NCBI GenBank assembly: GCA_016931695.1
Contig: JAFGEI010000004.1
Span: 1 to 64,000, forward strand
Length of the DNA stretch: 64,000 bases
Direction of reading: 5' to 3'
Source: Anaerolineae bacterium
GTDB taxonomy: Bacteria > Chloroflexota > Anaerolineae > B4-G1 > DUEL01
Shown here piece after piece: positions 4,586 through 57,051 of the stretch. The notes under the pieces are model-generated. The model did no database searches, was not told where the DNA came from, and saw nothing but the letters and a program-made list of their open reading frames with translations. Made by a program: the position numbers and the translations under genes. Within the stretch, counting starts at the first letter, position 1. Each line of letters begins with the position of its first letter.

Positions 4586-5242
4586 TCAAGAACTGCTCTC
4601 CGGTTCCCAGATGTGGCGAATCTGTATGTCGTTGGACTCGAGCGAGGCGACCAGTTCCTCCCGATCCACTCCTTCGACCCGAAAGGCGAGGATACGATCC
4701 TGGGGCCCCTCGCCCCAGAAGGTGCCCAAAGAGTGGATGTTGCCGCCAACCTGGGCAATGCAATTGGCCAGTTGTGCCAGGCTGCCCACCCGCTCGGGGA
4801 TCGTCACCGTGACCCGCAGGCTGGGATGCCCGCCGCCCAATCCCTCGACAAAGACGCGAAAGATGTCGGTGTCGCTGATGATCCCCACCAGCCGATTGTC
4901 CTGGACAACGGGCAGGCAGCCGATCCGATGATCGACCATGATCCGCGCCGCTTCCTCGATCGGCACCTCGGGCGAGACCACGACGGTCTCTTGTTGCATA
5001 ATCTGGCTGACCATTGTCCGTGAGAGCAAGTAGTCGATCTCAAAGACGCTGAGGGAAAGATCCGGGCTTGGAGAAGCATAGACCAGGCTCTTTTCGGTGA
5101 CGATGCCGACCGGCCTGTTGTCCTCGTCGACGACAGGCAAGTGTCGAAACGGCTGGCTGCGGATAAGGGCCAGCGCATCCTTGAGGCTGGTCTCGGGCGT
5201 AATCGTTACTGGATTGGCTGTCATACGATCTTTTACTAACAT
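4586..5242 (-). CDS. CBS-pair plus ACT domain protein (AcuB-like)
   Basis: Two CBS motifs (HLPVVDEDNRPVGIVTEKSL; GCLPVVQDNRLVGIISDTDI) followed by an ACT-like C-terminus. GGGAGGT SD lies 5 nt before the ATG at 5242. Confidence 0.8.
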   Translation of the reverse strand: MLVKDRMTANPVTITPETSLKDALALIRSQPFRHLPVVDEDNRPVGIVTEKSLVYASPSPDLSLSVFEIDYLLSRTMVSQIMQQETVVVSPEVPIEEAARIMVDHRIGCLPVVQDNRLVGIISDTDIFRVFVEGLGGGHPSLRVTVTIPERVGSLAQLANCIAQVGGNIHSLGTFWGEGPQDRILAFRVEGVDREELVASLESNDIQIRHIWEPESSS

Positions 5243-5255
5243 TTCTTACCTCCCT

Positions 5256-5413
5256 TTGTAGCACGACAATGTAACTGCTCAGCCCGACCCGCGACGCACC
5301 TTCCCGAAAGCTTTACTGGCGCTCACTTCACACAGAGCACACGGTAGCGCAGGTTTCGATGAGCCGGGCAGGCGATTTTCAGCTTTTGGGAAGGCCGCCT
5401 GAGCGGCCCGAAC
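5256..5413. repeat. Family-2 palindromic intergenic element, copy A
   Basis: Left arm aactgctcagcccgacccgcgacgcaccttcccgaaagcttt and right arm cagcttttgggaaggccgcctgagcggcc form an imperfect inverted repeat of about 150 bp. The unit recurs at 12999-13071, 13258-13321 and 19357-19494. Confidence 0.65.
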
Positions 5414-5418
5414 GATAG

Positions 5419-5757
5419 CTAACCTGGCGGCCAGCCGAAGGAGCGCCCCCCCATCAGGTGCATGTGCAGGTGATAGATGGATTGTCCGGCCTGGAGGCCG
5501 GTATTGACGACCAGGCGATAGCCTTCAAGTTCCAATTCCTCGGCCAGGTGACGGGCCACCGTAAAGAGCCGGCCCAACGCCGGCTCGTCCACCGGCGTGA
5601 CCTGGTCTACCCCATCCAGGTGATGGTTGGGAACGATGAGAATGTGAACCGGGGCGCGGGGATGCAGGTCCTGGAACGCCGTAACCCGCTGGTCCTGGTA
5701 GACGATCTGTGCCGGTGCCTGGCCCTGGACGATGCGGCAAAAGATACAGTCTTTCAT
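5419..5757 (-). CDS. HIT (histidine triad) family hydrolase
   Basis: 112-aa protein with the HLHMHLMGG histidine-triad motif. It overlaps the mtaB stop by 4 nt. Confidence 0.9.
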   Translation of the reverse strand: MKDCIFCRIVQGQAPAQIVYQDQRVTAFQDLHPRAPVHILIVPNHHLDGVDQVTPVDEPALGRLFTVARHLAEELELEGYRLVVNTGLQAGQSIYHLHMHLMGGRSFGWPPG

Positions 5758-13452: not shown

Positions 13453-15132
13453 ATGAAAAAACTGCGCATTCTCAGCGCCCTGACTGTAGCCTTGTTGCTC
13501 GTCAGCCTGCTTGCCGCTTGTGGTGGCGGAGAAACGGCGACGCCGACCGAAGCCCCCACCGATGTGCCGACAGAGCCGCCGACGGCTTTTGAGCCGATGA
13601 GCCACTCTGCCGACAGCTGTGACTATGGCGGCGAGTTCCTGACCATCGAGGCGCTCGACGAACTGACCGTCCAGTTCACCCTTTGCTATCCCGATCCCGC
13701 CTTCCCTTCCAAGATCGCCTTCTCCGCGCTGAACATTAACGACGCCGGCTATCTGGAAGAGACCGGCGGCGGCGGTGACCTGGTCTCCGCCCCGAACGGT
13801 ACCGGCCCCTACATGGTCGAGAACTGGGTCCGCGGCGAACAGCTGGTGCTCACGCGCTTTGACGATTACTGGGGCACGCCCGCCATCGCCGACACCGTCA
13901 TCTTTCGCTGGAACTCGGAGGCGGCCGCCCGCCTGGTCGAGCTGCAGGCCGGCACGGTGGACGGCATCGACAACCCGGCCTCGGACGACTTTGACGTCAT
14001 CGAGGGCGACCCCGACCTGGCCCTCTACGAACGGCCGGGCACCAACATCTTTTACCTGGGCATGAACAACTGGTACCCGCCTTTTGACAACGAGCGCGTG
14101 CGCCAGGCCTTTGCCATGGCCATCGACAAAGAGCGCATCGTCAACAACTTTTACCCTCGCGGCTCGATCGTCGCCGACCAGTTTATGCCGCCCTCGATCT
14201 TTGGCTACACCCCCGAGGTCGAGTGGTGGGAGTACAACCCCACAGAGGCACAGCGGATCCTGGAGGAAGAGGGCGTGCTGCCCGGCTTCCAGACCACCAT
14301 CACCTATCGTGACGTGGTCCGCTCCTACCTGCCCGAGCCCGGCGTCGTGGCCCAGGACATCCAGGCCCAGCTGGCCGAGATCGGGGTCGAGGTCGAGATC
14401 GTAGTCATGGAGTCCGGCACCTTCCTCGACGCCGCCGATGCTGGCGAGGTCGACGGCTTCCACCTGCTGGGCTGGGGCGCTGACTTCCCCGACGCCGTCA
14501 ACTTTCTCGACTTTCACTTTGGCCGCGGCGCCTCCGACCAGTTCGGCGACGGCTTTGAGGACATCTGGGACGCCCTGGAGCGCGGTGGCTCTCTGGCCGA
14601 CCCCGACGATCGCTACCCCATCTACATCGAGGCCAACGAGCTGATCCGGGAACACGTGCCAATGATTCCCATCGCCCACGGCGGCTCTGGCTGCGCTTAC
14701 CAGGCGGACGTCGCCGGCGCCCACTCCAGCCCGCTGGGCAACGAGTACTTTGCGGTGATGGACCCCGGCGGCCGCAGCCAGTTCGTCTGGATGCAGAACG
14801 CCGAACCGATCGGCCTCTACTGCGCCGACGAGACGGACGGCGAGTCGCTGCGCGCCTGCGAGCAGATCAACGAGCCACTGCTGGCCTACGAGGTCGGCGG
14901 TACCGCCATCGTTCCGGCATTGGCGACCGAGTGCACCGCCAACGACGACCTGACCGTGTGGACCTGCACCCTGCGCGACGGTGTCAAGTTCCACAACGGC
15001 GCGACCTTTGACGCCAACGACGTCGTGCTCTCCTACGTGGCACAGTGGGATGCGGCTCACCCGCTGCACGTCGGCCGCGACGGCAACTTTACTTACTTTA
15101 ACGCCTTCTTTGGGGCTTTTCTGAACGAATAG
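13453..15132 (+). CDS. ABC transporter substrate-binding lipoprotein, family 5 (DppA/OppA-like)
   Basis: Signal peptide plus lipobox LLAACGGG, a Thr/Pro-rich linker, and an SBP family 5 body. GAGGAGGAGAAAAAG SD precedes the ATG. Confidence 0.9.
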   Translation: MKKLRILSALTVALLLVSLLAACGGGETATPTEAPTDVPTEPPTAFEPMSHSADSCDYGGEFLTIEALDELTVQFTLCYPDPAFPSKIAFSALNINDAGYLEETGGGGDLVSAPNGTGPYMVENWVRGEQLVLTRFDDYWGTPAIADTVIFRWNSEAAARLVELQAGTVDGIDNPASDDFDVIEGDPDLALYERPGTNIFYLGMNNWYPPFDNERVRQAFAMAIDKERIVNNFYPRGSIVADQFMPPSIFGYTPEVEWWEYNPTEAQRILEEEGVLPGFQTTITYRDVVRSYLPEPGVVAQDIQAQLAEIGVEVEIVVMESGTFLDAADAGEVDGFHLLGWGADFPDAVNFLDFHFGRGASDQFGDGFEDIWDALERGGSLADPDDRYPIYIEANELIREHVPMIPIAHGGSGCAYQADVAGAHSSPLGNEYFAVMDPGGRSQFVWMQNAEPIGLYCADETDGESLRACEQINEPLLAYEVGGTAIVPALATECTANDDLTVWTCTLRDGVKFHNGATFDANDVVLSYVAQWDAAHPLHVGRDGNFTYFNAFFGAFLNE

Positions 15133-15150
15133 CTTGACGTCGCACCTGTT

Positions 15151-15190
15151 CCTGGTGGGGTGCTGGCTTTTGAGCCAGTGCCCCACCAGG
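15151..15190 (+). terminator. Strong hairpin between dppA and dppB (attenuator or partial terminator)
   Basis: cctggtggggtgctggc-ttttga-gccagtgccccaccagg forms a 17-nt stem with 2 mismatches. It lies 19 nt after the SBP stop, the usual position for SBP-versus-permease differential expression. Confidence 0.5.
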
Positions 15191-15225
15191 GCTGTCTCCT
15201 GCTTGGACGACCAAGAGAGTGTGTT

Positions 15226-16305
15226 ATGACCAGTTACATCATCAGACGGTTGCTGCTGGCAATCCCGGTGCTGTTGGGGATTCTCTTTGCCACTTTTGCC
15301 CTGGCGCGCCTGCTGCCGGGGGACCCGTGCCGGGCCGTCCTGGGCGAGCACGCCACCGACGCAATCTGCGATGCCTTCATGGAGCGGCACGGCCTGGACA
15401 AGCCCATCCCCACCCAGTTCGTGATCTACCTGGGTGAAGTGGCGCGGGGGGAGTTTGGCAATTCGCTCCGCTTCCAGCGGCCGGTCACCGACCTGCTCTC
15501 CGAACGCCTGCCGGTCACGGTCGAGCTGTCCCTCAGCGCGCTGTTCATCGCTACCATCGTTGGCATCCCTCTGGGTGTCATCTCGGCCTATTGGCGCAAC
15601 TCGCCCATCGACGTGGGCACGATGCTGCTGGCGAACACGGGGGTTTCCATGCCCGTCTTTTGGCTGGGCCTGATGCTGGCCTACGCCTTTGCTATCTTGC
15701 TGAAAGGCACTCCTTTCTGGCTGCCCCCGTCGGGCCGGATGACCTCTGGTATGTACCTGCCGCCGCTGTACGAGGCGTGGAACCTGGCCCTGGAGGAAGG
15801 GAGCGCCCTCTACAACATCCTCGCCTTCATATCCAACATGAACATCCTCAACGCCCTGCTGACTGGCAGTTGGGAGGAGCTGTGGGACGCGATCAAACAC
15901 ATGATTTTGCCCGCAGCAGCGCTGGGAACCATCCCGATGTCGATCATTGCCCGCATGACTCGCTCCAGCCTGCTCGAAGTGCTTGGCCTCGACTATGTCC
16001 GCGTGGCGCGATCCAAGGGACTGCGCGAGCTGATGGTGGTGCTCAAGCACGCCTTGCGCAACGCCCTGCTCCCCGTCGTCACCATCATTGGCCTGCAGCT
16101 CGGCTACCTGCTGGGCGGCGCGGTGCTGACCGAGACTATCTTTGGGCTGACCGGAGTGGGTAAATCGCTCTTTGAGGCGATCACGGCCCGCGATTACGTG
16201 GTCGTGCAGGTGTTCACACTGGTCATTGCGGTCGGTTTTGTCATCATCAACCTGATTGTCGACCTGTCGTACGCCTTTCTCGATCCGCGCGTTCGCTTCG
16301 AGTGA
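15226..16305 (+). CDS. ABC transporter permease (DppB/OppB-like)
   Basis: MTSYIIRRLLLAIPVLLGILF... is a typical N-terminus. Start chosen downstream of the hairpin. The ORF track's GTG at 15160 lies inside the hairpin. Confidence 0.85.
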   Translation: MTSYIIRRLLLAIPVLLGILFATFALARLLPGDPCRAVLGEHATDAICDAFMERHGLDKPIPTQFVIYLGEVARGEFGNSLRFQRPVTDLLSERLPVTVELSLSALFIATIVGIPLGVISAYWRNSPIDVGTMLLANTGVSMPVFWLGLMLAYAFAILLKGTPFWLPPSGRMTSGMYLPPLYEAWNLALEEGSALYNILAFISNMNILNALLTGSWEELWDAIKHMILPAAALGTIPMSIIARMTRSSLLEVLGLDYVRVARSKGLRELMVVLKHALRNALLPVVTIIGLQLGYLLGGAVLTETIFGLTGVGKSLFEAITARDYVVVQVFTLVIAVGFVIINLIVDLSYAFLDPRVRFE

Positions 16306-16325
16306 GCAGAACGGAGAGCCCGTCT

Positions 16326-17276
16326 ATGGCTGAACAAGCTGAGAACAAGAGAAACCGACGGCGGCCGCCGCGCAAGGGAAGCAGCCTGTGGCACGATGCC
16401 CTGCGCTATCTGCTCCGCCAGCGCTCGGCCATCCTCGGCCTCGTCATCCTCGGGATCATGCTCGTTGTGGCCATCTTTGCCCCGCTGATCGCTACCCACA
16501 GCCCAACACTGTCGATGCTCGACGTTCCAGAAGAGGTCGAGATGGGCGTCCGCCGCCGCCTGCCGCCGTGCATTCACCTCCTTGGCTGCCCGGAGGAGCA
16601 GCCGCAGCACATCCTGGGCTTGGACAGCAACGTGCGGGACCTGTTCAGCCGCATTGTGTATGGCTCCCGCTACTCGCTTTACATCGGTTTTGCCTCGGTG
16701 GGGTTCGCCATCGTGATCGGCGTCTTGTTGGGCGCGGTGGGGGGGTACCTCGGCGGGTGGGTCGACAACGTGATCATGCGGATTATGGATGTGTTACTGG
16801 CCTTTCCCACCCTGCTGCTGGCGATCGCCATCGTCACCGTGCTGGGGCCGGGGCTGGTCAATGCCTTATTGGCCATCGGCATCGTCTCCATTCCCGCTTA
16901 TGCCCGGGTGATGCGCGCCAGCGTCATCTCGATCAAGGAACGGGACTTTGTGGTCGCCGACCGGGCGCTGGGGGCCTCGCCGGGCCGCATCCTGGTGCGC
17001 CGCATCCTGCCCAATGCCATCACGCCGATGATCGTGCAAGGGACGCTGGGAATCGCCACGGCGATCCTGGACGCGGCAGCGCTCTCTTTCCTGGGGCTCG
17101 GCGCCCAACCGCCGACCCCCGAATGGGGCACGATGTTGGGCGCGGAGAGGACGCAGGTCTTTACCTCGCCGCACCTGGTCTTTTTCCCCGGCCTGATGAT
17201 CATGCTCGTCGTGCTGGCTTTTAACCTGCTGGGCGACGGCCTGCGCGACGCCCTCGACCCGCGCCTCAACCGTTGA
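16326..17276 (+). CDS. ABC transporter permease (DppC/OppC-like)
   Basis: Permease family with the conserved EAA-like region. ATG at 16326 has a GGAGAG SD 9 nt upstream. The ORF track GTG at 16302 overlaps the dppB stop. Confidence 0.85.
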   Translation: MAEQAENKRNRRRPPRKGSSLWHDALRYLLRQRSAILGLVILGIMLVVAIFAPLIATHSPTLSMLDVPEEVEMGVRRRLPPCIHLLGCPEEQPQHILGLDSNVRDLFSRIVYGSRYSLYIGFASVGFAIVIGVLLGAVGGYLGGWVDNVIMRIMDVLLAFPTLLLAIAIVTVLGPGLVNALLAIGIVSIPAYARVMRASVISIKERDFVVADRALGASPGRILVRRILPNAITPMIVQGTLGIATAILDAAALSFLGLGAQPPTPEWGTMLGAERTQVFTSPHLVFFPGLMIMLVVLAFNLLGDGLRDALDPRLNR

Positions 17277-17301
17277 CCGGAACAGGCTGTAGGTGATCGT
17301 G

Positions 17302-18315
17302 ATGGAAACAATGACTGATCGGACCCCACAGGCGGCGCCACCGTCGAATGACAGCATGCTCGACATTCGTGATCTGCGCACCTATTTCTATACCCAGGAC
17401 GGCGTCGTCAAGGCCGTTGACGGCGTCGATTTTTCCGTGCGCCAGGGCGAAATCGTGGGCCTGGTCGGCGAGTCCGGCTGCGGCAAGAGCGTCACCGCCC
17501 TCTCGGTGCTGCGCTTGATCGCCCATCCCGGCAAGATCGAGTCCGGCGAGATATTCTTCGACGGCGTCGACCTGCTCACCCTGCCGCGGCGGGAGATGAC
17601 CCGCATCCGCGGCAGCCGCATCTCGATGATCTTTCAGCAGCCAACCAGCTGCCTCAACCCGGTTTTCGACATCGGCGACCAGCTGGCCGAGGTGCTGGCA
17701 ATTCACAAAAAACTCAAGCGGCGCGTCGGGCGTGAACGGGCCGTCGAATTGCTCAACACCGTCGGTATTCCCGATCCGGAAAAGCGGATCCACGCTTATC
17801 CGCACGAGCTTTCGGGCGGCCAGGCGCAGCGGACGATGATCGCCATGGCCCTGGCCTGTGATCCCGAGCTGCTGATCGCCGACGAGCCGACCACGGCGCT
17901 GGACGTGACGATCCAGGCCCAAATCCTGGACCTGATGCGCAGCCTGCAGGACAGCAGCGGCGCGGCGATTATCCTCATCACCCACGACCTGGGGATCGTC
18001 GCCGAGATGGCCTCCCGCGTGGCGGTGATGTATGCCGGCCAGATCGTCGAGGAGGCGGACGTCACCACCCTGTTCGACGAGCCGCTGCATCCCTACACCC
18101 GGGGCCTGCTCGCCTCGATCCCGGTATTGGGACAGGTGAAGGACGAATTGGAGGTCATCCCGGGCGTCGTGCCCAACCTGATCGACCTGCCGCCCGGCTG
18201 CCGCTTTGCGCCCCGCTGCCGCTACCGGATGCCGGTTTGCAGTGAACAAGACCCCGCCATCTTGACCGTGGCGTCGGGGCACCGGGTCCGATGTTGGTTG
18301 CACGCCGGGCAGTAG
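17302..18315 (+). CDS. ABC transporter ATP-binding protein (DppD/OppD-like)
   Basis: Walker [14 protein letters not shown] signature, and an oligopeptide-type C-terminal Cys motif ([14 protein letters not shown]). Confidence 0.9.
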
Positions 18316-18351
18316 CGACAGCGGGAGTAGCAGGAAGACGAGGGAAAGAGC

Positions 18352-19353
18352 GTGAAACAAGCTGCTGAGAATCTGATCGAGGTCAATCACCTGTTCAAAT
18401 ACTTTCCCGTCCACGGGGGGGTCCTGCGGCGCGTCCAGGGCTGGGTCAAAGCGGTCGACGACGTCAGCTTTACCATCCGCGTTGGGGAAACATTGGGGCT
18501 GGTCGGCGAGTCCGGCTGTGGCAAGACGACCATCGGCCGCTCGATCTTGCGCCTGATCGAGCCCACTCGCGGGCAGGTGCTGTTCGACGGCCAGGACCTG
18601 GTGGCGATGAAGGCCAAAGAGCTCAAGGCTATGCGGCGCAAGATGCAGATCATCTTTCAGGACCCCTATTCCTCCCTCGACCCCCGCGCCCAAATTGGCA
18701 CCATCATCGGCGAAGCGCTGCAGGTTCACGGCGTCAGGGACGCGGCGGAACGCCAGGAACGGGTGATGGAGATATTGACCAAGGTCGGACTGGCCGAAGA
18801 CCACATCCGCCGCTATCCGCACGAGTTCTCTGGCGGTCAGCGGCAGCGCATCGGCATCGCCCGCGCCCTGGTCCTGCGCCCCAGCTTTATCGTCTGTGAC
18901 GAGCCGGTATCCGCCCTGGACGTCTCCATCCAGTCCCAGGTTCTCAACCTGCTGCGGGCGCTGCAGCGCGAGTTCGGCCTGACCTACCTGTTTATCGCCC
19001 ACAACCTGCAGGTGGTCGAGCACATCAGCGACCGCGTGGCGGTCATGTACCTGGGCAAGATCGTCGAGACGGCCGACCGCATCGAGCTCTACCGCAGCCC
19101 CCTTCACCCCTATACCCAGGCCCTGATGTCCGCCATCCCCATCCCGGACCCGACCCTGGAGCGGAAGCGGATCATCCTGGAGGGGGACGTTCCCAGCCCC
19201 GTCGATCCGCCGCCCGGCTGTCGTTTCCACCCCCGCTGCCCGTCGGCGATGGATATCTGCGCGCAACAGGAACCCGCGCTGGTGGAAGTTGAGCCGGATC
19301 ACCACGTCGCCTGCTACTTGTTCCACGACGTCAGCACCCAGGGAACGGGTTGA
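18352..19353 (+). CDS. ABC transporter ATP-binding protein (DppF/OppF-like)
   Basis: Walker [17 protein letters not shown] signature, and a C-terminal [14 protein letters not shown] motif. Confidence 0.9.
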
Positions 19354-19866: not shown

Positions 19867-20008
19867 CTCTCAATTGAGACCCCCAGGCGCCGTGGGCGCT
19901 CATACCTGGGGCCCGACCATCATTGTCGACGACATTGCAGCTATGAAGGGCCAGGATCATTGCTCCGCCAGCCGCGCCGGACAGACCGGAACGGTTGCTT
20001 TTAACCGC

Positions 20009-23000
20009 ATGCCCCGCCTCCAGGAGCCGCTGCCGCGGGGCGAGATTGAACTGCCTGCGCCCCCGAGCCGCCCCCCGCTGCCCAAGCTGAACTGGTTCTT
20101 GCTGCTGCTGCCCCTTGCCGGCCTCTTTGTGATGGCCGGGGTCTATGGCGGCCTCCGCGGCGACTGGCTGCTGGCGGCGCCGATGATCGCCCTCTCGACC
20201 ATTTCGCTGACCACCTCCATCGCCGGGCGGCTCGTCCAGCGCCGGCAGCACCAGCAGCAGGCGGAGGAGCAGGAGGCCGCCTACGCCGCGGCGCTGGAGC
20301 AAAAGCGGCAGGACCTGGAGCAGGCGCGGCAGGAGCAGCAGCGCATCCGTACCCAAGTTGACCCGGACCTGGCGTCGCTGCTCGACCGGGCCCAGCGGCG
20401 CGACCCCCGCCTGTGGCAGCGCCGTCCCGACGACGGAGACTTTTTGCACCTGCGGCTGGGCATCGGCTCGCTGCCCTCCACCGTCGCCGTGGCGGCCCCG
20501 CGCGCGCCGCTGCCCGATCCCCGCCTGGAGGCAGTCCTCGCCCTGGCGGCCGAGTACGCCGCTGTCCCCCAGGTGCCGCTGGCGGCGCGCCTCCGCGACG
20601 GGCCGTTGGGCATCGCCGGCCCGCTGCCCGACCGCACCGGCCTGGCCCGCGCGCTGCTCTGCAACCTGGTCGCCCACCACGCACCCGACGACGTCCACCT
20701 CCTTTGTCTCTACTCTCCCCTGCAGGCGGCGGCGTGGGCGTGGCTCAAGTGGCTGCCGCACACCTATGCCCTCCATCCGCAGAGCGGTCGTCACTACCTG
20801 GCGGCAGGCACCGCCGGGTTTGAGGTCGCGCTGAAGGAATTGTTGGAAGAACTGCGCCGCCGGCAGAACCAGCTTTATGCCGCCCAGCAGGAGGAGCGGG
20901 TGCCCGATTGGCCCTGGTTGGTGGTGCTGGTAGAGGACGAAGCGGCGGCCCGGGATGCCCCCGCGATCCACCTGCTGCTCTCGCCGGAGGGCCGGTTGTT
21001 GAAAGCAACCGCCCTCTTCCTGGTCGACGAGATCACCCAGGTGCCGATGGGCTGCCGCGGCGTCGCCGAGGTCCAGACGGACGGGCGGGTCGTCTATTCG
21101 ACTGCTGGCGCTGCGGGCGAGACCCACGCCTGCTGGCCCGAACAGGCCGACGTCACGCTCTGCGAGCGGATCGCCCGCAGCCTGGCGCCCCTGCAAGTGC
21201 GCGCCCGGCGCCTGGATGGCGTGCTGCCCAGCGAGGTTCACCTGCTGGCCATGTTGGGGATTGCTGCTCTCGACGCCTACGACGCTGCCCACTGCTGGGA
21301 GAACGGGGCGCCCTACGGCGCCCTGCGCTCCCCCATCGGCGTGCGGCGGGGCGGGGAGCCCATGCTGCTCGACCTGGCCCCCACCGGCCACGGCCCGCAC
21401 GGCCTGGTCGCCGGCACCACCGGCTCCGGCAAGAGCGAGCTGCTACAGACAATCGTGCTCGGCCTGGCCCTCACGCACCATCCCTACGAGATCGGTTTCG
21501 TGCTGGTCGATTTCAAGGGCGGCGGCGCCTTCTCCGGGCTGGTTGACCTGCCCCATACGTTGGGGCTGGTCACCGACTTGGGCGGGCGCCTGGCCGAGCG
21601 GGCGCTGCTCGCCCTGCGGGCCGAGATGGAGCGGCGCAAGCGGCTCTTTCAGCAGGCCGGTGTCGGCGACGTCGATGGCTACCAGGCCCTGTACCGGCAG
21701 GGGCGGATCGAGCAGCCGCTGCCGCGCCTGGTGATCATCATCGACGAGTTTGCCGAGCTGGTCAGCGACGAGCCGGACTTTATCGACGGGCTCGTCGGCG
21801 TCGCCCGCGTGGGCCGCTCGCTGGGGCTGCACCTGATCCTGGCCACCCAGAGCCCGGCGGGCGTGGTCAAGCAGCAGATTTGGGCTAACGCTCGCTTTCG
21901 CATTTGCCTGCGGGTCGAATCGCGCCAGGAGAGCAGCGAGATGCTGCACCGTCCCGAGGCGGCCGACCTGCCCCGCCTGCCGGGCCGGGGCTATTTCCAG
22001 GTTGGCAACAACGAGTTGTTCGAGCTCTTTCAGGTGGCGCGGGTGGCGGGCCGTTATCTCGCCGGGGTGAGCGAGCCGGCTGTGACGGCGCCGCCGTTGG
22101 CCATCGCCCGCGTCTCTGCCCAGGGCCAGCGGACGCACTTGTTTGACGACAGCGACGTGCAGCCGGGCCAGGCCGCCGGCCACCTGCCCGACCTCCCGCT
22201 CGTCGTCGCCCACCTGGCCCGCACCGCCCGCCGCCTAGGCGTCGACAAGTTGCCCCCGCCCTGGCTCGCTCCGCTGCCGGACCACGTCGCCCTGCCCGAC
22301 CTGCTCGATCGTGCCGCGGTGGGCGGATGGGACGAGGCGGAGGGGATGTGGCGTCCGGCGCGCTGCTGGCTGGCAGCGCCGTTGGGCCTGCTGGACGATC
22401 CGGCGCACCAGCGCCAGCTTCCGCTGTCGATCCCGCTGGAGCAGCAAGACGGGCACCTGATCATCGTCGGCGCGCCCGGCTCGGGCAAGGGCATGCTGGT
22501 GCGCACCCTGGTGATGGGCCTGGCCCACGCCCACGCGCCGGACGCGCTGCACGTCTACCTGCTCCAGTTCGGCGGGCAGGCGCTGCAGGTGCTCCAGCAC
22601 CTGCCCCACGCCGCCGGTCTGTTCACCCCGCTGGACGACGAACGGGTGTCGCGGCTACTGCGCCGCTTGCTCGACGAGCTGGAAGAGCGCAAGGCGCTGT
22701 GCGTCCGCGCCCACGTGGACGGCCTGGCCCGCCTGCGCGGCCTGGGCCCGGAGCGGGTGCCGCCCGCCATCCTCGTCGTCCTGACCGGCGCGGCGGAATT
22801 TCGCGCTGCCTTTCCGGACGAGACTCTTCATCTGACCCGCCTCGTCCGCGAGGGGGGGCCGTATGGGCTGCACGTCATCTTGACCGGCGACCGGGCGGGG
22901 GACGTCGCCCTGGCCATCAGCAGCGTCGTCGCCCGCCGCATCGCCCTGCGCCTGGCCGATGCCAGCGACTATGCCCTCGTGCTGGGGATGACGCCGCTGC

Positions 23001-24028
23001 GGGGCAGGGAGCCACGGCTGCCCTGCGGCCGGGGCTGGTACGGCCGCCCGCCGCTCGAATTCCAAGCCGCCGCTCCTGTCGGTGCGGGGGAGGGCGATGC
23101 GCAGTCGGCGGAGCTGCGGCGGATTGCGCTGCGGATGAACCAGGCCTGGCAGGGTCCGCGGCCAGAGCCGGTGGAGACGCTGCCGGCAGCGATCCCGCTG
23201 GCCCGGCTGCTGGCCAGCGCTGCTGCGCCGCCGCTCTCTCCGCTTGCCGCGCCGCTCGGCTTGGACGGCGTCCGCCTCCGCCCGGTCCTGATCGACCTGG
23301 CGCTGCGCGAGCCGGGGTTCGTCGTCGCCAGCACGCCCCAGGGCGGCAAGACGACGCTGCTGTGGACCTGGGCGCTGGCGCTGGCGGAGCGCAGCTCGCC
23401 GCAGCAGCTCCAACTGCTGCTCGTCTCCGGGCGCCGCGGCAGTCTTGGCCCCCTGGCGCGGCTGCCGCACGTCGTGGCGCACTTTGGGAGCCCCGAGCAG
23501 CTGCTGCGCGACGGCGGCATGGCCCGCCTGCAGGCGGAACTGGAGCGCCGCCAGGCCCGGCTGGACGAATCGCCGGAGAGCAGCGCTGCCTTCCCGCACC
23601 TGCTGGTGATGTTTGACGACTATGACGAGTCGTTCAACGCCGTCGGCAGCGAGGCCGAGGTGCAGCAGGGCCTCGAATGGCTCGCCCGGCGCGGGCGGGA
23701 CGTGAACGTCTGCACCGTCGTCACCGGCCCGCTGCCGGCAATGGGCGTGGGCTTCAACGACCCCCTGGTGCGCCAGCTCAAGGTTGGGCGCTCGGGCTTT
23801 CTGCTCCGCGTGTTGGACGCGAACGACCAAAACCCGCTGGGCGTGCGCCTGCGTCTTCCTGAAGGCACGGCCATGCCCGCGGGGCGCGGATACGTGGTGC
23901 GCAACGGCTCCGAAGAACTGTTGCAGGTCGCCACGCCGGGCGACGGCAGCGCCGTCGCCGCATGGGCCGCGCGGCTGGAAAAACGCTGGAGCGACGCCGG
24001 GGCGGAGCAGGCCGCCTGGCCAGTATAG
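20009..24028 (+). CDS. eccC: Type VII secretion FtsK/SpoIIIE-family ATPase, EccC-type (three P-loop ATPase domains, two N-terminal TM helices)
   Basis: N-terminus MPRLQEPLPRGEIELPAPP plus two TM helices, followed by RRDPRLWQRRPDDGDFLHLRLG, resembles actinobacterial EccC. Three Walker A sites: GTTGSGKSELLQT, GAPGSGKGMLVRT, STPQGGKTTLLWT. No FHA domains. Start uncertain; the ORF track ATG at 19874 abuts tRNA-Leu and lacks an SD. Confidence 0.85.
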   Translation: MPRLQEPLPRGEIELPAPPSRPPLPKLNWFLLLLPLAGLFVMAGVYGGLRGDWLLAAPMIALSTISLTTSIAGRLVQRRQHQQQAEEQEAAYAAALEQKRQDLEQARQEQQRIRTQVDPDLASLLDRAQRRDPRLWQRRPDDGDFLHLRLGIGSLPSTVAVAAPRAPLPDPRLEAVLALAAEYAAVPQVPLAARLRDGPLGIAGPLPDRTGLARALLCNLVAHHAPDDVHLLCLYSPLQAAAWAWLKWLPHTYALHPQSGRHYLAAGTAGFEVALKELLEELRRRQNQLYAAQQEERVPDWPWLVVLVEDEAAARDAPAIHLLLSPEGRLLKATALFLVDEITQVPMGCRGVAEVQTDGRVVYSTAGAAGETHACWPEQADVTLCERIARSLAPLQVRARRLDGVLPSEVHLLAMLGIAALDAYDAAHCWENGAPYGALRSPIGVRRGGEPMLLDLAPTGHGPHGLVAGTTGSGKSELLQTIVLGLALTHHPYEIGFVLVDFKGGGAFSGLVDLPHTLGLVTDLGGRLAERALLALRAEMERRKRLFQQAGVGDVDGYQALYRQGRIEQPLPRLVIIIDEFAELVSDEPDFIDGLVGVARVGRSLGLHLILATQSPAGVVKQQIWANARFRICLRVESRQESSEMLHRPEAADLPRLPGRGYFQVGNNELFELFQVARVAGRYLAGVSEPAVTAPPLAIARVSAQGQRTHLFDDSDVQPGQAAGHLPDLPLVVAHLARTARRLGVDKLPPPWLAPLPDHVALPDLLDRAAVGGWDEAEGMWRPARCWLAAPLGLLDDPAHQRQLPLSIPLEQQDGHLIIVGAPGSGKGMLVRTLVMGLAHAHAPDALHVYLLQFGGQALQVLQHLPHAAGLFTPLDDERVSRLLRRLLDELEERKALCVRAHVDGLARLRGLGPERVPPAILVVLTGAAEFRAAFPDETLHLTRLVREGGPYGLHVILTGDRAGDVALAISSVVARRIALRLADASDYALVLGMTPLRGREPRLPCGRGWYGRPPLEFQAAAPVGAGEGDAQSAELRRIALRMNQAWQGPRPEPVETLPAAIPLARLLASAAAPPLSPLAAPLGLDGVRLRPVLIDLALREPGFVVASTPQGGKTTLLWTWALALAERSSPQQLQLLLVSGRRGSLGPLARLPHVVAHFGSPEQLLRDGGMARLQAELERRQARLDESPESSAAFPHLLVMFDDYDESFNAVGSEAEVQQGLEWLARRGRDVNVCTVVTGPLPAMGVGFNDPLVRQLKVGRSGFLLRVLDANDQNPLGVRLRLPEGTAMPAGRGYVVRNGSEELLQVATPGDGSAVAAWAARLEKRWSDAGAEQAAWPV

Positions 24029-24046: not shown

Positions 24047-24325
24047 TTATACGACTCGCTGGTCGGTCTCTTCAAAGGCCATGGCAATGCGGCGCAGCTC
24101 GCTGGCGAGCGATTCGATGATCTCGCCCACCCGCACCCGCATCGTCGGCACCTCGTTGTCGAAAATGCGGGTATAGTCGATCTGCGCCATGCCGAGCCAC
24201 TCGCCCTGCAGGCCGTGCACGATGTTGATCGTGCTGTTCAGCACCCCGTCGATCTCCTGGCGGTGGCTGTCCAGCTGGGTGGCGGCGTTGCGCAATTGCT
24301 CGGGGGATACGCGAATTTGGGACAT
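24047..24325 (-). CDS. WXG100 family protein (EsxA/EsxB-like)
   Basis: 92-aa helical hairpin with central W-L-G (QGEWLGMAQ). N-terminus MSQIRVSPEQL. AGGAGGT SD 8 nt upstream. Converges on eccC. Confidence 0.85.
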   Translation of the reverse strand: MSQIRVSPEQLRNAATQLDSHRQEIDGVLNSTINIVHGLQGEWLGMAQIDYTRIFDNEVPTMRVRVGEIIESLASELRRIAMAFEETDQRVV

Positions 24326-24403: not shown

Positions 24404-24679
24404 CTAGATGACGCGCTCGTCGGTCTCGCGAAAGACCTGGGCGATGCGCTGCAGCTCGGACGAAATCTCGCCCAGCAGCAGGGCAAACTGGGACATGCGG
24501 GGAACCATCTCGTTCCACTGGGCGTAGAACTTGTTCTGCGCCACGCCGTCCCACTCGACGTCCAGCGTTTCGATTGCGCCTTGGAGCGACTGGATGAGGG
24601 ACTCTGCCTCGGCCCGCTTGGTGTCAAAGAGGTGCGCGACACCCTCGAGCCTTTCCGGAGCAACAATGATCTGCGACAT
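24404..24679 (-). CDS. WXG100 family protein (EsxA/EsxB-like), second paralog
   Basis: 91-aa protein with MSQIIVAPERLEG and W-D-G (DVEWDGVAQ). Start trimmed to the ATG at 24679 with a GGAGGT SD. The ORF track extends it to 24886 without support. Confidence 0.85.
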   Translation of the reverse strand: MSQIIVAPERLEGVAHLFDTKRAEAESLIQSLQGAIETLDVEWDGVAQNKFYAQWNEMVPRMSQFALLLGEISSELQRIAQVFRETDERVI

Positions 24680-24718
24680 GGTAACCTCCGATTGGACAGG
24701 ATTGTGGATTCGTGTATA

Positions 24719-24746
24719 ATTATACATGTATTGCGGGAAAATGCAA
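24719..24746 (-). promoter_or_regulatory. Minus-strand TTGCAT-16-TATAAT promoter for the WXG100 gene pair, inside a TATAATTATA palindrome. A plus-strand TTGGAC-17-TATAAT (24692-24720) is arranged back-to-back with it.
   Basis: Reverse complement reads cTTGCATtttcccgcaatacatgTATAATtatac. Plus strand reads TTGGACaggattgtggattcgtgTATAAT. Confidence 0.5.
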
Positions 24747-24952
24747 GTTTCGAGACAACGAGATGACAACGCAGCCCACGAAGCGAGCTTGACCTCTCTG
24801 CTGGTTCCCGCTGAACACCATGACCGGCAGCATCCGCTCTGGGCAACCGACGTAGCTGACAATGAAGAACCAACATGCCGCTCCATTCGAGTACACGCGA
24901 AAACTGTATAATCTCTCTCTTGAGTGTCGGTCTAACCAAGCGGCAGAAAACC

Positions 24953-25001
24953 GGCCACGAATTGACGCGAATTCACACGAATTGACGCAAAATTCGTGGC
25001 C
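24953..25001 (+). promoter_or_regulatory. Leader element upstream of the effector gene: tandem direct repeats ACGAATTGACGC (24957-24968 and 24977-24988) embedded in an inverted repeat ggccacgaatt...aattcgtggcc
   Basis: Seen directly in the sequence. Repeat starts are 20 nt apart. Followed by hairpins cccaggct-tgcc-agcctggg and gggggaaaaagtgggtgc...gcccacctctttcccc before the SD at 25155. Confidence 0.45.
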
Positions 25002-25165
25002 GAAAATTGCCGGTAATACCCAGGCTTGCCAGCCTGGGTGCTCTCTTGTACCGGAGAGGGGGAAAAAGTGGGTGCTGGCGCCCACCTCTTTCCCCTTCCC
25101 GGGCTTGGGAGAGCGCCGAGGGGAAGCTGGCTGAGCAATTACCATACGGAACAAAGGAGGAAACA

Positions 25166-26329
25166 ATGACGCAAATCCGTATCAATACCGAACTGGCGCA
25201 GGAAACCGCGCAGCGGCTCGCGCGGGGTGGAAGCCAGCTGGTCGAGATCGACCGCGTCCTGCGAGGCGCGGTCGGCAGCCTCGATACCAGCGCCTGGGAC
25301 GGGGTCAGCCGTTCGCGGGCCGAGCCGCTGCTCTCGCAGGTGGGATCGGCCGGCGGGCGCCTGGTCGCCGAAATCACGGGCCTCGGCCAGACGTTGGCCC
25401 GCACGGCCGAGGCCTTTGCCCGGGCGGACCAGGCCGCTGCCCGCAGCCTGGCGGGGATGCCGTGGGTCGAGTGGGGCGGAGGTTCCAGCGCCCTTCCGCC
25501 CGGCGATGTCCCGCCAGGGGACAACCCGGACCTGGACGGCGTCAGGGGAGCGGAGGGCGCGGTCTATGCAGCTGTCGAGGGCGAGTCCTTCATCCCCGGT
25601 GCCGGCGATGCCGGTGCCATTCATCCCAACGACGTCCACCAAGGCCGACTGGGCGACTGTTACTTTCTCGCCTCCCTGGCGACCATCGCCGACCAAAACC
25701 CCGCCCTGATCGAGCGGATGGTTCACGACAACGGTGACGGCACCTACACCGTCACCTTTTACCGTCGCAACAGCCCCTTTGCTTTTTGGCAGCCGGACTT
25801 TAGCCCTGTCGAGGTCACCGTGACCCCTGACTTTCCCCTCGACCACAACCGGCCGCTGTTTGCCCAACCCGGCGATGCCGCCGGGTCGCAGCAAGAGCTG
25901 TGGACGATGCTGGTCGAAAAAGCCTATGCCAGCTACCACGGCGGCTACCACGACATCGAAGGCGGGTGGGGCCACACGGCGATGGAGGAGCTGACCGGAA
26001 CCGCCAGCGACTGGTACGCTCCCTCAGCCATCGACCTCGATACCCTGGCGGCGTACAGCGAGAATGGATATGGGATGACCGCCTCCAGCATGGCCGATTG
26101 GGAGGTTCCCGGCGTGGTCGACATCCCCGACCAGACCGACCTGCATCCCCTGTACGTCAGCGGCGACCTCGCCGCCAACCACGAGTACTACGTCTCGCAC
26201 GTCGACCGGGAGTTGGGAACAATTACCTTGCGCAATCCCTGGGGCTGGGGCTGGGGCGAGACCACGCTGTCATTCGAGGAATTTCAGGCCACCTTTCGAC
26301 GGGTTTCAGTCAACCCGCTCACACCATAG
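25166..26329 (+). CDS. WXG100-domain protein fused to a calpain-like (peptidase C2) cysteine protease; putative T7SS-secreted effector/toxin
   Basis: N-terminal 100 aa (MTQIRINTELAQETAQRL...SAWDGVSRS) form a WXG100 helical hairpin. C-terminus carries calpain hallmarks: QGRLGDCYFLASLATIA (Cys), WTMLVEKAYASYHGGY, HEYYVSHV (His), LRNPWGWGWGE (Asn). AAGGAGG SD 6 nt before the ATG. Confidence 0.8.
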   Translation: MTQIRINTELAQETAQRLARGGSQLVEIDRVLRGAVGSLDTSAWDGVSRSRAEPLLSQVGSAGGRLVAEITGLGQTLARTAEAFARADQAAARSLAGMPWVEWGGGSSALPPGDVPPGDNPDLDGVRGAEGAVYAAVEGESFIPGAGDAGAIHPNDVHQGRLGDCYFLASLATIADQNPALIERMVHDNGDGTYTVTFYRRNSPFAFWQPDFSPVEVTVTPDFPLDHNRPLFAQPGDAAGSQQELWTMLVEKAYASYHGGYHDIEGGWGHTAMEELTGTASDWYAPSAIDLDTLAAYSENGYGMTASSMADWEVPGVVDIPDQTDLHPLYVSGDLAANHEYYVSHVDRELGTITLRNPWGWGWGETTLSFEEFQATFRRVSVNPLTP

Positions 26330-26340
26330 GAGGGAAACTC

Positions 26341-26661
26341 GTGAATTCGCAAACTTATTTCATACGCGCCAGCACCCAGTTGAACCTGCCCGGCGTGCAG
26401 ATTGCTGCCGGCAACTTGATGATGGCGGAATACCGGGATCGAGAAGGGATCGCCCAGCGCGGCCCGACGGCGATGCTGTGGATCCAGCAGCCGGGCGACC
26501 CACCCTTGACGCAGCAGGTCCGCGCCCATGTCGGGCAGGTCGTCGACGCCGGTCCCTACACCGTCCGCATCGCCGACATCGGCGTGGACGAGGGCGGCGG
26601 CTTTGTCCAGGCCGTCCTGCGGCCGGCCGGTGAGGATTTGGAGCGGCCGTGCTCGTCGTGA
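26341..26661 (+). CDS. Small hypothetical protein (106 aa); candidate immunity protein or inhibitor for the calpain-like effector
   Basis: GTG start 12 nt after the effector stop with a GGAGGG SD. It is the C-terminal part of ORF-track entry 25900..26661 in the same frame. No recognisable domain. Confidence 0.55.
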   Translation: MNSQTYFIRASTQLNLPGVQIAAGNLMMAEYRDREGIAQRGPTAMLWIQQPGDPPLTQQVRAHVGQVVDAGPYTVRIADIGVDEGGGFVQAVLRPAGEDLERPCSS

Positions 26662-27701
26662 CCATCAGCGCTCCGGAGCTGCCGGAGCCGGTCGACCTGG
26701 AGCTGCCGGGGGACGTGTGCGTAGAGCGGCTGCTGCCCGGCTTGATCGCTGCCCTGCAGCTGCCGCCGGGCAGCTACCGCCTCGTTCACCGCTCCCGTCT
26801 CCTGGCGCCGGAGCAAACCTTGGGCGACGCCCAGGTCCTGATGGGCGACAGCTTGGCGCTGCTGGCAGAGTGCCAAGATGATCCGCCGGTGTCGGAGCTG
26901 GCAGGAGCGGCCGAGCCGGTCCGCCTCACCGACCTGGTCGCGCCCCGCGCCACATCTCTGCCGCCGGACCGCACCGGAAAGACAATCGCCATCTGGTCGG
27001 GTCCGGCGGGCGGCACCGGGCGGACGACGCTGGCGCTGGCGCTGGCCCTGCTGCTCGCCGGGCGGGTGGGCGAGGCGGTCCTGCTGGCGCTTGCCGAACC
27101 CGCCCTCTCCGCTTACCTGCGGCTGCCCCGCACCCCCAACGCCAGCGCCTTTTTCGAGACCGGCGGCCTGCGGGCAGCGGTGCAGCGCGTGAGCTGGGAA
27201 AGAAAAGGGGCGGAGATTGCGGCGCTGGCGGTCATCCTGGGCCCGGCCCGGCCCGGCGAGGGCGTTGCGGAAGCGGAGCGGGTGGTGGAATTGGTGGCAG
27301 CCGCGCGCGCCGCCTATCCGCTCGTCCTGCTCGACCTGCCCGCCCTGACGCCGGGGGGGAATCCCTGGTGCCTCGGGCCGCTGGCCCAGGCCACCGACCT
27401 GCTGCAGGTCGCCCGGCCGACGACGGTCGGCGTGGCGGCGACGGTGGAAGCATTGGCTGCGTTGCGGGACCTGGGCGGGGACGTCCAAGCCCACCTGGTC
27501 CTGGTGCGCTGGGGAGAAGGGGAGCTGACCAGGCCAGACTTTGTCCGCGCCGTGCGGGAGCTGTGGGGCAACTGCCCCGCGGTGGCGGCAGAGGTCCCCT
27601 TTCTCCCTTCCCTGCCGGCGGCGCTGGAACGGGGGGAGATGCCGCGAGAGGTAGAGTACATTCGAGCGTTGGAGGGGGTTATGGCCGCCATCGGCACCTG
27701 A
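26649..27701 (+). CDS. YukD/EsaB-like ubiquitin-fold (beta-grasp) domain fused to a MinD/ParA/CpaE-like P-loop domain with a degenerate Walker A
   Basis: N-terminal 75 aa (MLVVTISAPELPEPVDLELPGDVCVERLLPGLIAALQLP...QVLMGDSLALL) match the EsaB/YukD pattern. The P-loop is KTIAIWSGPAGGTGRTTLALA (deviant Walker A, Lys to Arg). GTG start overlaps the upstream gene by 13 nt. Confidence 0.65.
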   Translation: MLVVTISAPELPEPVDLELPGDVCVERLLPGLIAALQLPPGSYRLVHRSRLLAPEQTLGDAQVLMGDSLALLAECQDDPPVSELAGAAEPVRLTDLVAPRATSLPPDRTGKTIAIWSGPAGGTGRTTLALALALLLAGRVGEAVLLALAEPALSAYLRLPRTPNASAFFETGGLRAAVQRVSWERKGAEIAALAVILGPARPGEGVAEAERVVELVAAARAAYPLVLLDLPALTPGGNPWCLGPLAQATDLLQVARPTTVGVAATVEALAALRDLGGDVQAHLVLVRWGEGELTRPDFVRAVRELWGNCPAVAAEVPFLPSLPAALERGEMPREVEYIRALEGVMAAIGT

Positions 27702-56863: not shown

Positions 56864-57051
56864 GTGGCGAAAAAGCCGCTTCCCCGGCCGGATGCCGGCC
56901 AGCCTGGCGGCAATTGCAACGTAACTCAAATGTAACGCTCCATTATCCTGGCCCATGGTACACTTGTGAGTACCTAATCTGACTCTGTCGCGCTAACTGC
57001 TCCGACAGTAGGCCAGGTGATTACAGCCAATCAATGGCAGGAGGTTTTGCC

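Follow-up and report, generated by a model that had tools for sequence, protein, structure and literature searches.

What does a bacterium do with a calpain-type cysteine protease that carries a WXG100 domain at its N-terminus, and what is the small protein whose gene follows directly behind it? The question is raised by a stretch of 64,000 nucleotides from an Anaerolineae bacterium of the phylum Chloroflexota (contig JAFGEI010000004.1, positions 1 to 64,000; hereafter the window), in which a gene for a 387-aa WXG100-peptidase C2 protein (25166..26329, + strand) stands next to a gene for a 106-aa protein (26341..26661, + strand) in a cluster of type VII secretion system (T7SS) genes. We consider it likely that the locus encodes a T7SS substrate with a C2 protease as its cargo, together with a cognate protein inhibitor. 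An earlier note on this DNA, made from its letters alone, had read the pair as an effector with its immunity protein, and the linkage of the two genes, the arrays and orphans of the small partner, and the modularity of the domains all support that reading.

The protease gene starts with an ATG at 25166, which is preceded, with 5 nt in between, by the Shine-Dalgarno (SD) sequence AAGGAGG. A TTG start at 25007, which would give a product of 440 aa, is unlikely in view of the strong SD before the ATG and the length of the database copy, an NCBI entry (P0001) of 387 aa from an Anaerolineae metagenome-assembled genome (MAG) that is 100% identical to the window protein and is annotated as "WXG100 family type VII secretion target". 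The open reading frame (ORF), with its WXG100 hairpin and calpain signatures, is present as the earlier note had described it, the motifs being W44-D45-G46, QGRLGDC165YF, NH339EYYVSHV, LRN357PWGWGWGE, and EKAYASYHGGY. Dozens of database homologues have the WXG100 and C2 domains together.

The C-terminal domain is a calpain-fold protease core with an intact, invariant catalytic set. It spans residues ~120-387 (25523..26329, + strand). Pfam Peptidase_C2 (PF00648; cut-off 23.8 bits) matches residues 152-361 with a score of 90.9 bits (E=9.8e-26), and a sequence search of all PDB chains returned calpain protease cores only, the best being calpain-1 (1zcm, E=1.3e-14), with which the QGxLGDC and EKAYA segments line up. 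In an AlphaFold2 (AF2) model built on 24 homologues, the block-mean predicted local distance difference test (pLDDT) score is mostly >90 across residues ~120-387, and the top 39 Foldseek matches of this model in PDB are all calpain cores (calpain-3, -1, and -9; E 3.5e-15 to 7e-9). Profile, comparison of the sequence with solved structures, and predicted structure all lead to the calpain core, and none to a non-protease fold, which the earlier note had named as the outcome that would speak against a protease. The catalytic positions Gln159 (25640-25642), Cys165 (25658-25660), His339 (26180-26182), and Asn357 (26234-26236), whose codons were checked on the + strand, are invariant in the alignment of 24 homologues, and Trp359 is at least 90% conserved. 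A phmmer pairwise alignment to human calpain-1 offered H325 as the catalytic His, but H325 is not conserved; H339, the His of NHEYYV that had been assumed to be catalytic from the start, is the invariant one. The core is homologous to those of eukaryotic calpains, with 21-26% identity to calpain-1, -2, -3, and -9 and the same Gln, Cys, His, Asn, and Trp active-site residues, whereas calpain domain III and the penta-EF-hand were not detected in the 387-aa protein by Pfam, which found WXG100 and Peptidase_C2 only; the protein ends 26 residues past the matched core. The window protein is a bare calpain-family core, like the bacterial calpain homologues of Rawlings, which were reported to be without Ca2+ sites (Rawlings 2015, PMC4631099).

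The first 95 residues (25166..25450, + strand; W44-D45-G46 codons at 25295-25303) make up a WXG100 helical-hairpin domain. Over residues 3-92, both curated models are covered in full, Pfam WXG100 (PF06013; cut-off 27.3 bits) with a score of 26.4 bits (E=8.6e-6), and TIGR03930 (cut-off 44.85 bits) with one of 32.9 bits (E=5.6e-8); the profile search that had been proposed as a check on both domains thus put Peptidase_C2 far above its threshold and WXG100 just under. Database records carry PF06013 for the 387-aa protein and for most of its close homologues. The AF2 model has helices at residues 8-39 and 47-95 with the W44-D45-G46 turn between them, and Foldseek places this hairpin on the EsxA and EsxB crystal structures with target template modeling (TM) scores of 0.74-0.81 at weak E-values of ~1e-2. 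The end of the second helix, F84-ARA-D88-QA-A91-ARS-L95, matches HxxxD/ExxhxxxH, a pattern proposed to be part of the T7SS recognition surface (PMC3935865), and the 24-sequence family consensus retains F, D, and A at the equivalents of F84, D88, and A91. A Gly/Pro-rich linker (residues 96-119; 25451..25522, + strand) joins the two domains; it is predicted to be disordered, with pLDDT <50 at residues 91-113 of the AF2 model, and its length and sequence vary across homologues.

The small gene begins with a GTG at 26341, separated from the protease stop codon by a gap that we measured as 11 nt, and AGGAGGG overlaps that stop and lies 6 nt upstream of the GTG, so that the adjacent ORF with an SD of its own was correctly recognized in the earlier note. 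Its 3' end overlaps the next gene, which starts at 26649, by 13 nt. The GC content of its codon positions (0.70/0.47/0.84) follows the coding pattern of the neighboring genes, and the other two frames are without this pattern. From the SD motifs, the spacing, and the codon-position GC, it follows that the protease and 106-aa ORFs are real genes arranged for translational coupling. The product has no match in Pfam or NCBIfam (and none of 32 relatives has one in Pfam), a word-indexed single-sequence search returned only the protein itself, annotated as hypothetical, and a profile search of PDB with the partner family gave no match. Relatives of the protein came to light only when the related loci were searched and when a profile was used. 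The AF2 model of the 106-aa protein is all-beta with eight strands (pLDDT 84, predicted TM score 0.75). We found no sequence or fold likeness between this candidate inhibitor or immunity protein and staphostatin, chagasin, cystatin, or calpastatin. Calpastatin is an intrinsically disordered inhibitor, in contrast to the folded beta-protein modeled here.

An exhaustive hidden Markov model search of 1.84 billion representative proteins extended the partner family to 233 clusters at E<=1e-3 (family proteins P0121-P0298). Two forms recur among its members: 82 of 177 have a lipobox signal, and 54 of 177 are short and signal-less. An example of the former is MKKYPLFFLALLLLALAAC, the lipoprotein signal and lipobox found in locus L003, and the closest relatives of the window partner, in loci L002-L004, are likewise of the lipoprotein form. 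The window partner itself is signal-less, with neither room nor coding potential for an upstream signal; a signal peptide hidden ahead of the annotated start was considered and rejected, as the in-frame upstream sequence, which overlaps with the protease gene, does not code for any hydrophobic segment. Within partner arrays, lipoproteins occupy the proximal positions and signal-less forms the distal ones. A surface-anchored partner would imply that the enzyme acts outside the cytoplasmic membrane, and a cytoplasmic partner that it is neutralized before export. The two forms may be connected. Lipoprotein forms are enriched for a Met about four residues ahead of the beta-domain (at one position it is present in 12 of 82, compared with a background of 1.6%), which is where the signal-less forms begin, and in L003 (10256-10648) and L004 (11088-11570), this Met is preceded by GGAGGA/AAGGAA. 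Such a Met may be an internal start for a cytoplasmic isoform, or the relic of one.

How closely does this partner follow the protease? Linkage was assessed on a set of 9,022 ORFs, drawn from the window and from 81 loci that total 1.27 Mb. Single-sequence phmmer with the 106-aa query recovered 12 ORFs, spread over 10 loci besides the window and each adjoining a C2 gene on the same strand, and the iterated partner profile found 26 ORFs in 18 loci, all at most ~1.4 kb from a C2 gene. A family member lies directly downstream of 14 of the 21 WXG100-C2 genes. In five others, which form a Herpetosiphon clade, a different lipoprotein of ~126 aa follows 6 nt downstream (L011:11074-11457, L023:10720-11097, L026:11075-11452, L030:10720-11097, and L033:10636-11013); its comparison with the 106-aa family gave an hhalign probability of 12%, over a shared C-terminal G-x-x-h-x-h-x-x-x-x-Y-x-V. 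The reverse look-up, starting from the small protein, reached C2 genes in two of three cases, P0149 and P0135 both lying directly after a Peptidase_C2 gene. The downstream ORF is thus conserved with the protease gene in both search directions, and the two also diverge together: pairwise identities of protease domains and of their adjacent partners correlate with r=0.82 (Mantel p~2e-4, 16 pairs), as would suit a pair that co-evolves. The earlier note would have given up its reading had the linkage been absent. Copy number varies as well, with four tandem diverged partner copies in each of L031 and L050, four family members among the small ORFs arrayed behind the C2 gene of L085, and a single copy in the window.

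Further comparisons suggest that the partner tracks the C2 domain rather than the WXG100 domain or the secretion system. A family member stands beside a C2 gene without WXG100 in L010 (Myxococcota). Clustering the genes downstream of all C2 genes revealed a second family of ~215-235 aa, most members of which have evident signal peptides, in 15 loci from Luteimonas/Lysobacter, Rhodospirillales, Solirubrobacterales, and some Myxococcota; profile-profile comparison shows its kinship with the 106-aa family (hhalign probability 90%, E=1.4e-6, 72 columns). When the WXG100 domain is instead attached to a different enzyme, a different small ORF follows: a WXG100-Gln_deamidase_2 fusion beside the C2/partner pair in L083 and L084 is succeeded by an unrelated ORF of 166 aa. 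The C2 domain, for its part, is fused in relatives to eCIS_core and to three LysM domains (clear matches) and to a Flp_Fap pilin-like segment (a weak one), as in P0065, P0101, and P0103 (loci L005-L081). This exchange of modules around C2 and WXG100 agrees with the polymorphic-toxin-like design that had been proposed for the window protein.

Two side observations concern the same set of loci. A third small family (~120-130 aa, signal-less) follows long C2 proteins in nine loci of Myxococcota and related MAGs (L064-L069, L071, L078, and L079), with the conserved motifs GNKGPFLL and ILGRYGPD; no relationship to the 106-aa family was found when it was considered as a relative, and it is possibly another cognate partner family. 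One metagenomic locus (L082:810-6660, L083:2-2869, and L084:48-2622) combines a 447-aa WXG100 protein and four small WXG100 genes with a C2 protease/partner pair, and these are directly followed by the WXG100-Gln_deamidase_2 fusion with its own small ORF; it is a textbook multi-toxin T7SS neighborhood.

The surroundings of the pair in the window are those of a T7SS. An EccC-type ATPase (19874..24028, + strand; Pfam FtsK_SpoIIIE E=1.5e-79, in three stretches) ends ~1.1 kb 5' of the protease gene, and between them lie two esx genes on the opposite strand. One encodes a WXG100/Esx protein of 92 aa (24047..24325, - strand; Pfam WXG100 E=2.1e-12, TIGR03930 E=6.9e-15, above the cut-off), and the other a 91-aa WXG100/Esx protein starting with MSQIIVAPERL (24404..24679, - strand; Pfam WXG100 E=2.9e-16, TIGR03930 E=1.3e-19, measured on a 99-aa version), whose start at 24679 was picked because of a GGAGG 6 nt upstream and a likeness to other Esx N-termini. 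Directly 3' of the partner gene is a gene for a 350-aa YukD/EsaB-domain protein (26649..27701, + strand; Pfam YukD E=1.4e-7, residues 4-71). The window, L002, and L004 have the order eccC, esx, esx, WXG100-C2, partner, yukD in common, and it is partly kept in L003 and L009; syntenic proteins of L002 and L004, which come from two other Anaerolineae genomes, are 44-72% identical to those of the window, the EccC orthologs at the same position 60-61%. The placement of its gene between eccC with the two esx genes and the YukD-domain gene makes it very probable that the WXG100-C2 protein is a substrate of the T7SS. The genomes of Herpetosiphon and most other Chloroflexota each contain several copies of the WXG100-C2 gene, with no eccC closer than 10 kb.

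Some features of the cluster and its flanks deserve mention in their own right. Beyond its YukD domain, the 26649-27701 product has a region of ~280 residues with weak ParA/MinD/BcsQ-type P-loop similarity (NCBIfam E~5e-3) and a Walker A-like motif, GPAGGTGRTT, with Arg where Lys is usual; orthologs of this YukD-P-loop fusion, an unusual T7SS accessory architecture, lie directly 3' of the partner gene in L002 and L003. On either side of the cluster lie housekeeping genes, upstream those of an opp-type (oligopeptide) ABC transporter (13453-19353) and downstream SPFH, rpsO, and pnp. These flanks have a GC content of ~0.60-0.64, which rises to 0.72-0.73 over 20-24 kb (mostly eccC) and to 0.69 over 26-28 kb, an elevation that may reflect amino-acid bias or foreign origin. 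Farther away, and unrelated to the protease/partner pair, a gene at 57034-61914 (+ strand) encodes a likely large surface protein of 1626 aa with a right-handed beta-helix region and four DUF11 repeats.

The divergent region between the esx and protease genes probably serves as a shared bidirectional promoter or operator. It contains a promoter-like element (24693..24724; a sigma-70-like match at 11/12 positions on the + strand) with the palindromic TATAATTATA at 24715-24724, which, together with its flanking blocks, is invariant in the window, L002, and L004. The intergenic blocks ATGCAAGT and GGGCGACCAACGCAGC.GACAACG.AGCC (24693-24900) are kept in L002 and L004, even though identity between the proteins encoded on either side is no more than 45-72%. 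Closer to the protease gene, the leader at 24957-25040 has direct repeats, with CACGAATTGACGC occurring twice, and 25017-25040 forms a 10-bp GC-rich hairpin that was flagged as terminator-like; alignment with L002 and L004 indicates little conservation of this part. An Rfam scan of the 460-nt protease leader gave one sub-threshold miRNA chance match and nothing else, and the repeated GACAACGCAGCC motif showed no excess over chance in the window at three mismatches.

The T7SS domain, the intact protease, the linked partner with its arrays and orphans, and the reuse of the C2 domain are together consistent with a protease that is exported as an effector and paired with its cognate inhibitor or immunity protein. 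Several observations nevertheless weigh against this interpretation. The WXG100 scores of the protease N-terminus fall under both curated cut-offs. The window partner is without the lipoprotein signal of its closest relatives, which would put it in a different compartment. Two of the 21 WXG100-C2 genes, both in L009, have no detectable partner. The third reverse look-up, from P0142, led to a locus (L088; GCA_022707645.1, JAKJAF010000129.1) with partner-like genes and no recognizable C2 gene; its two partner-family lipoprotein genes (2710-3186 and 4923-5426) lie among other small ORFs, and from this arrangement, it looks like an orphan-immunity island. The co-divergence of protease and partner is what would be expected of any two co-inherited neighbors. 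Finally, the closest Anaerolineae keep the protease in a fixed slot of the core T7SS cluster with no swapping of toxin domains there, which makes the locus less typical of polymorphic toxins.

Could the protease instead serve a purpose other than antagonism, such as scavenging, digestion of prey, surface remodeling, or the maturation of exported proteins, with the partner as an inhibitor for self-protection? In staphopain-staphostatin operons, the gene for a secreted papain-like protease is followed by one for an all-beta cytoplasmic inhibitor of ~100-110 aa that protects the producer, and the layout resembles that of the window, whose partner likewise has no signal peptide. The fixed position of the gene in the core T7SS clusters of the window, L002, and L004 points the same way, as does the oligopeptide ABC transporter just upstream, but the opp operon is not detectably adjacent in related loci (no oppA match, E<=1e-4). 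The closest C2 relatives are also concentrated in predatory or lytic taxa, namely Herpetosiphon and, outside Chloroflexota, Myxococcota and Lysobacter/Luteimonas. Diverged arrays (L031, L050, and L085) and the orphans of L088 are, however, typical of immunity repertoires and not of a single self-inhibitor, and the surface-lipoprotein partners that make up 82 of 177 family members are placed against incoming rather than nascent enzyme. We therefore regard a non-antagonistic use as unlikely, if still deserving of some weight.

Less probable still is a role of the 106-aa protein in export, as a chaperone or adaptor, or in positioning the protease, as a surface anchor or receptor. A need for small partner proteins is common among T7SS substrates (PMC10730906), the lipoprotein forms could tether the enzyme at the membrane, and the predicted fold has no likeness to known inhibitors. 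Yet the targeting partners known from T7SS are themselves helical hairpins and bind to the N-terminal domain, which is helical too, whereas the 106-aa protein is all-beta; partners occur beside C2 proteins that have no WXG100 domain or T7SS, in L010 and in the 15 second-family loci, proteobacterial genomes included; and diverged arrays are hard to account for on this basis. It is very improbable that the WXG100-C2 protein belongs to the T7SS itself as a structural or processing component, with a role like that of the mycosin MycP of actinobacterial ESX: the position of its gene between esx and yukD is kept in several Anaerolineae, and ESX systems do have a dedicated protease, but the pairs of Herpetosiphon and many Chloroflexota, multi-copy and with no eccC within 10 kb, are cargo-like, the WXG100 domain is of the substrate type with no membrane anchor, and eCIS_core and LysM modules also carry the C2 domain.

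If the locus does encode an exported effector protease with its inhibitor, how might the pair work? By analogy with characterized T7SS substrates, we infer the following course. The WXG100 hairpin would pair with a neighboring Esx protein or with a second copy of itself, and the F84-xxx-D88 surface, where helix 2 ends, would be offered by the pair to EccC, the ATPase through which the folded protein would cross the cytoplasmic membrane. Outside the cell, the domain with Cys165, His339, and Asn357 may cut proteins in or on the envelope of neighboring cells, giving the enzyme an antibacterial role. The 106-aa beta-protein, encoded in the same operon, would bind the protease domain and hold it inactive; as the window partner has no signal peptide, binding would take place in the cytoplasm of the producer, before export. 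The lipoprotein partners of relatives would sit on the outer face of the membrane and shield the surface from protease released by sister cells, an immunity role. Extending this further, one could tentatively propose that the 106-aa family is a phylum-spanning group of beta-sandwich inhibitors specific for bacterial calpain-type proteases and deployed on both faces of the membrane, with lipoproteins shielding the surface, signal-less forms silencing the enzyme before export, and some genes yielding both through the internal Met, and that the effectors are the first T7SS toxins to kill or disarm monoderm neighbors by proteolyzing their surface-exposed envelope proteins.

The WXG100-calpain architecture is already known, both from the NCBI annotation of this exact protein and from Rawlings 2015 (Biol Direct 10:66, PMC4631099), who found WXG100 in three calpain homologues of Herpetosiphon aurantiacus and one of Segniliparus rugosus and noted that such proteins may be toxins exported via ESX/T7SS. 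Those proteins have the same two-domain architecture, and Herpetosiphon P0070 and P0072 (L011, L012, and L033) are direct homologues of the window protein, which differs in being only ~30-35% identical to the Herpetosiphon proteins, in belonging to an Anaerolineae clade, and in lying inside a T7SS core cluster. The study of Rawlings is a domain listing, with no gene-neighborhood analysis, partner or immunity gene, or experiments. What is new here is the partner family, its near-obligate linkage to C2 across phyla, its lipoprotein and signal-less forms, and the location of the pair within a minimal Chloroflexota T7SS cluster.

Among experimentally characterized systems, TslA-TilA of Staphylococcus aureus, a T7SSb lipase toxin with lipoprotein immunity (PMC10730906), is similar in that a T7SS-exported enzyme acts outside the membrane and is tightly bound by a lipoprotein encoded next to it in variable tandem copies, a description that many homologues of the 106-aa protein fit. 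However, TslA, a phospholipase, has its domains in reversed order and contains an LXG-like domain, and TilA belongs to DUF576, whereas the 106-aa family has no Pfam match and the window partner no lipoprotein signal. In the Cpe1-Cpi1 pairs (PMC12136450), a papain-like cysteine protease, also with a clan-CA-type Cys/His arrangement, is an interbacterial toxin whose immunity gene lies directly downstream and co-diverges with it. Cpe1 differs in its delivery by type VI secretion or contact-dependent inhibition systems in Gram-negatives, in acting in the target cytoplasm, where it cleaves GyrB/ParE, and in being described as related to the papain-like peptidase domains of ABC exporters and not to C2; Cpi1 is cytoplasmic. 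The WXG/LXG polymorphic toxins described by Zhang et al. 2012 (PMC3482391) provide the general layout of an N-terminal T7SS domain, a C-terminal toxin, and downstream immunity, Chloroflexi included, and the word calpain is absent from the 300,000 characters of that text considered here. Searches of the literature for experimental work on a calpain-type T7SS effector, or for the T7SS of Herpetosiphon or Chloroflexi, returned Rawlings 2015 only, and they yielded no report of a characterized T7SS-delivered protease toxin.

Interbacterial protease toxins are among the least understood effectors, and bacterial calpain homologues have almost no assigned biology. The locus and its relatives offer a compact, testable pair of a calpain-type enzyme and a tightly linked small partner, and they document a minimal Chloroflexota T7SS cluster, consisting of EccC, two Esx proteins, and a YukD-P-loop fusion, in a lineage with no experimental T7SS study in the literature searched. 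If the partner is indeed an inhibitor, it would represent a new class of calpain-family inhibitors with a predicted fold unlike the known ones that were searched, and the distinction between its lipoprotein and signal-less forms would point to the site at which the enzyme acts.

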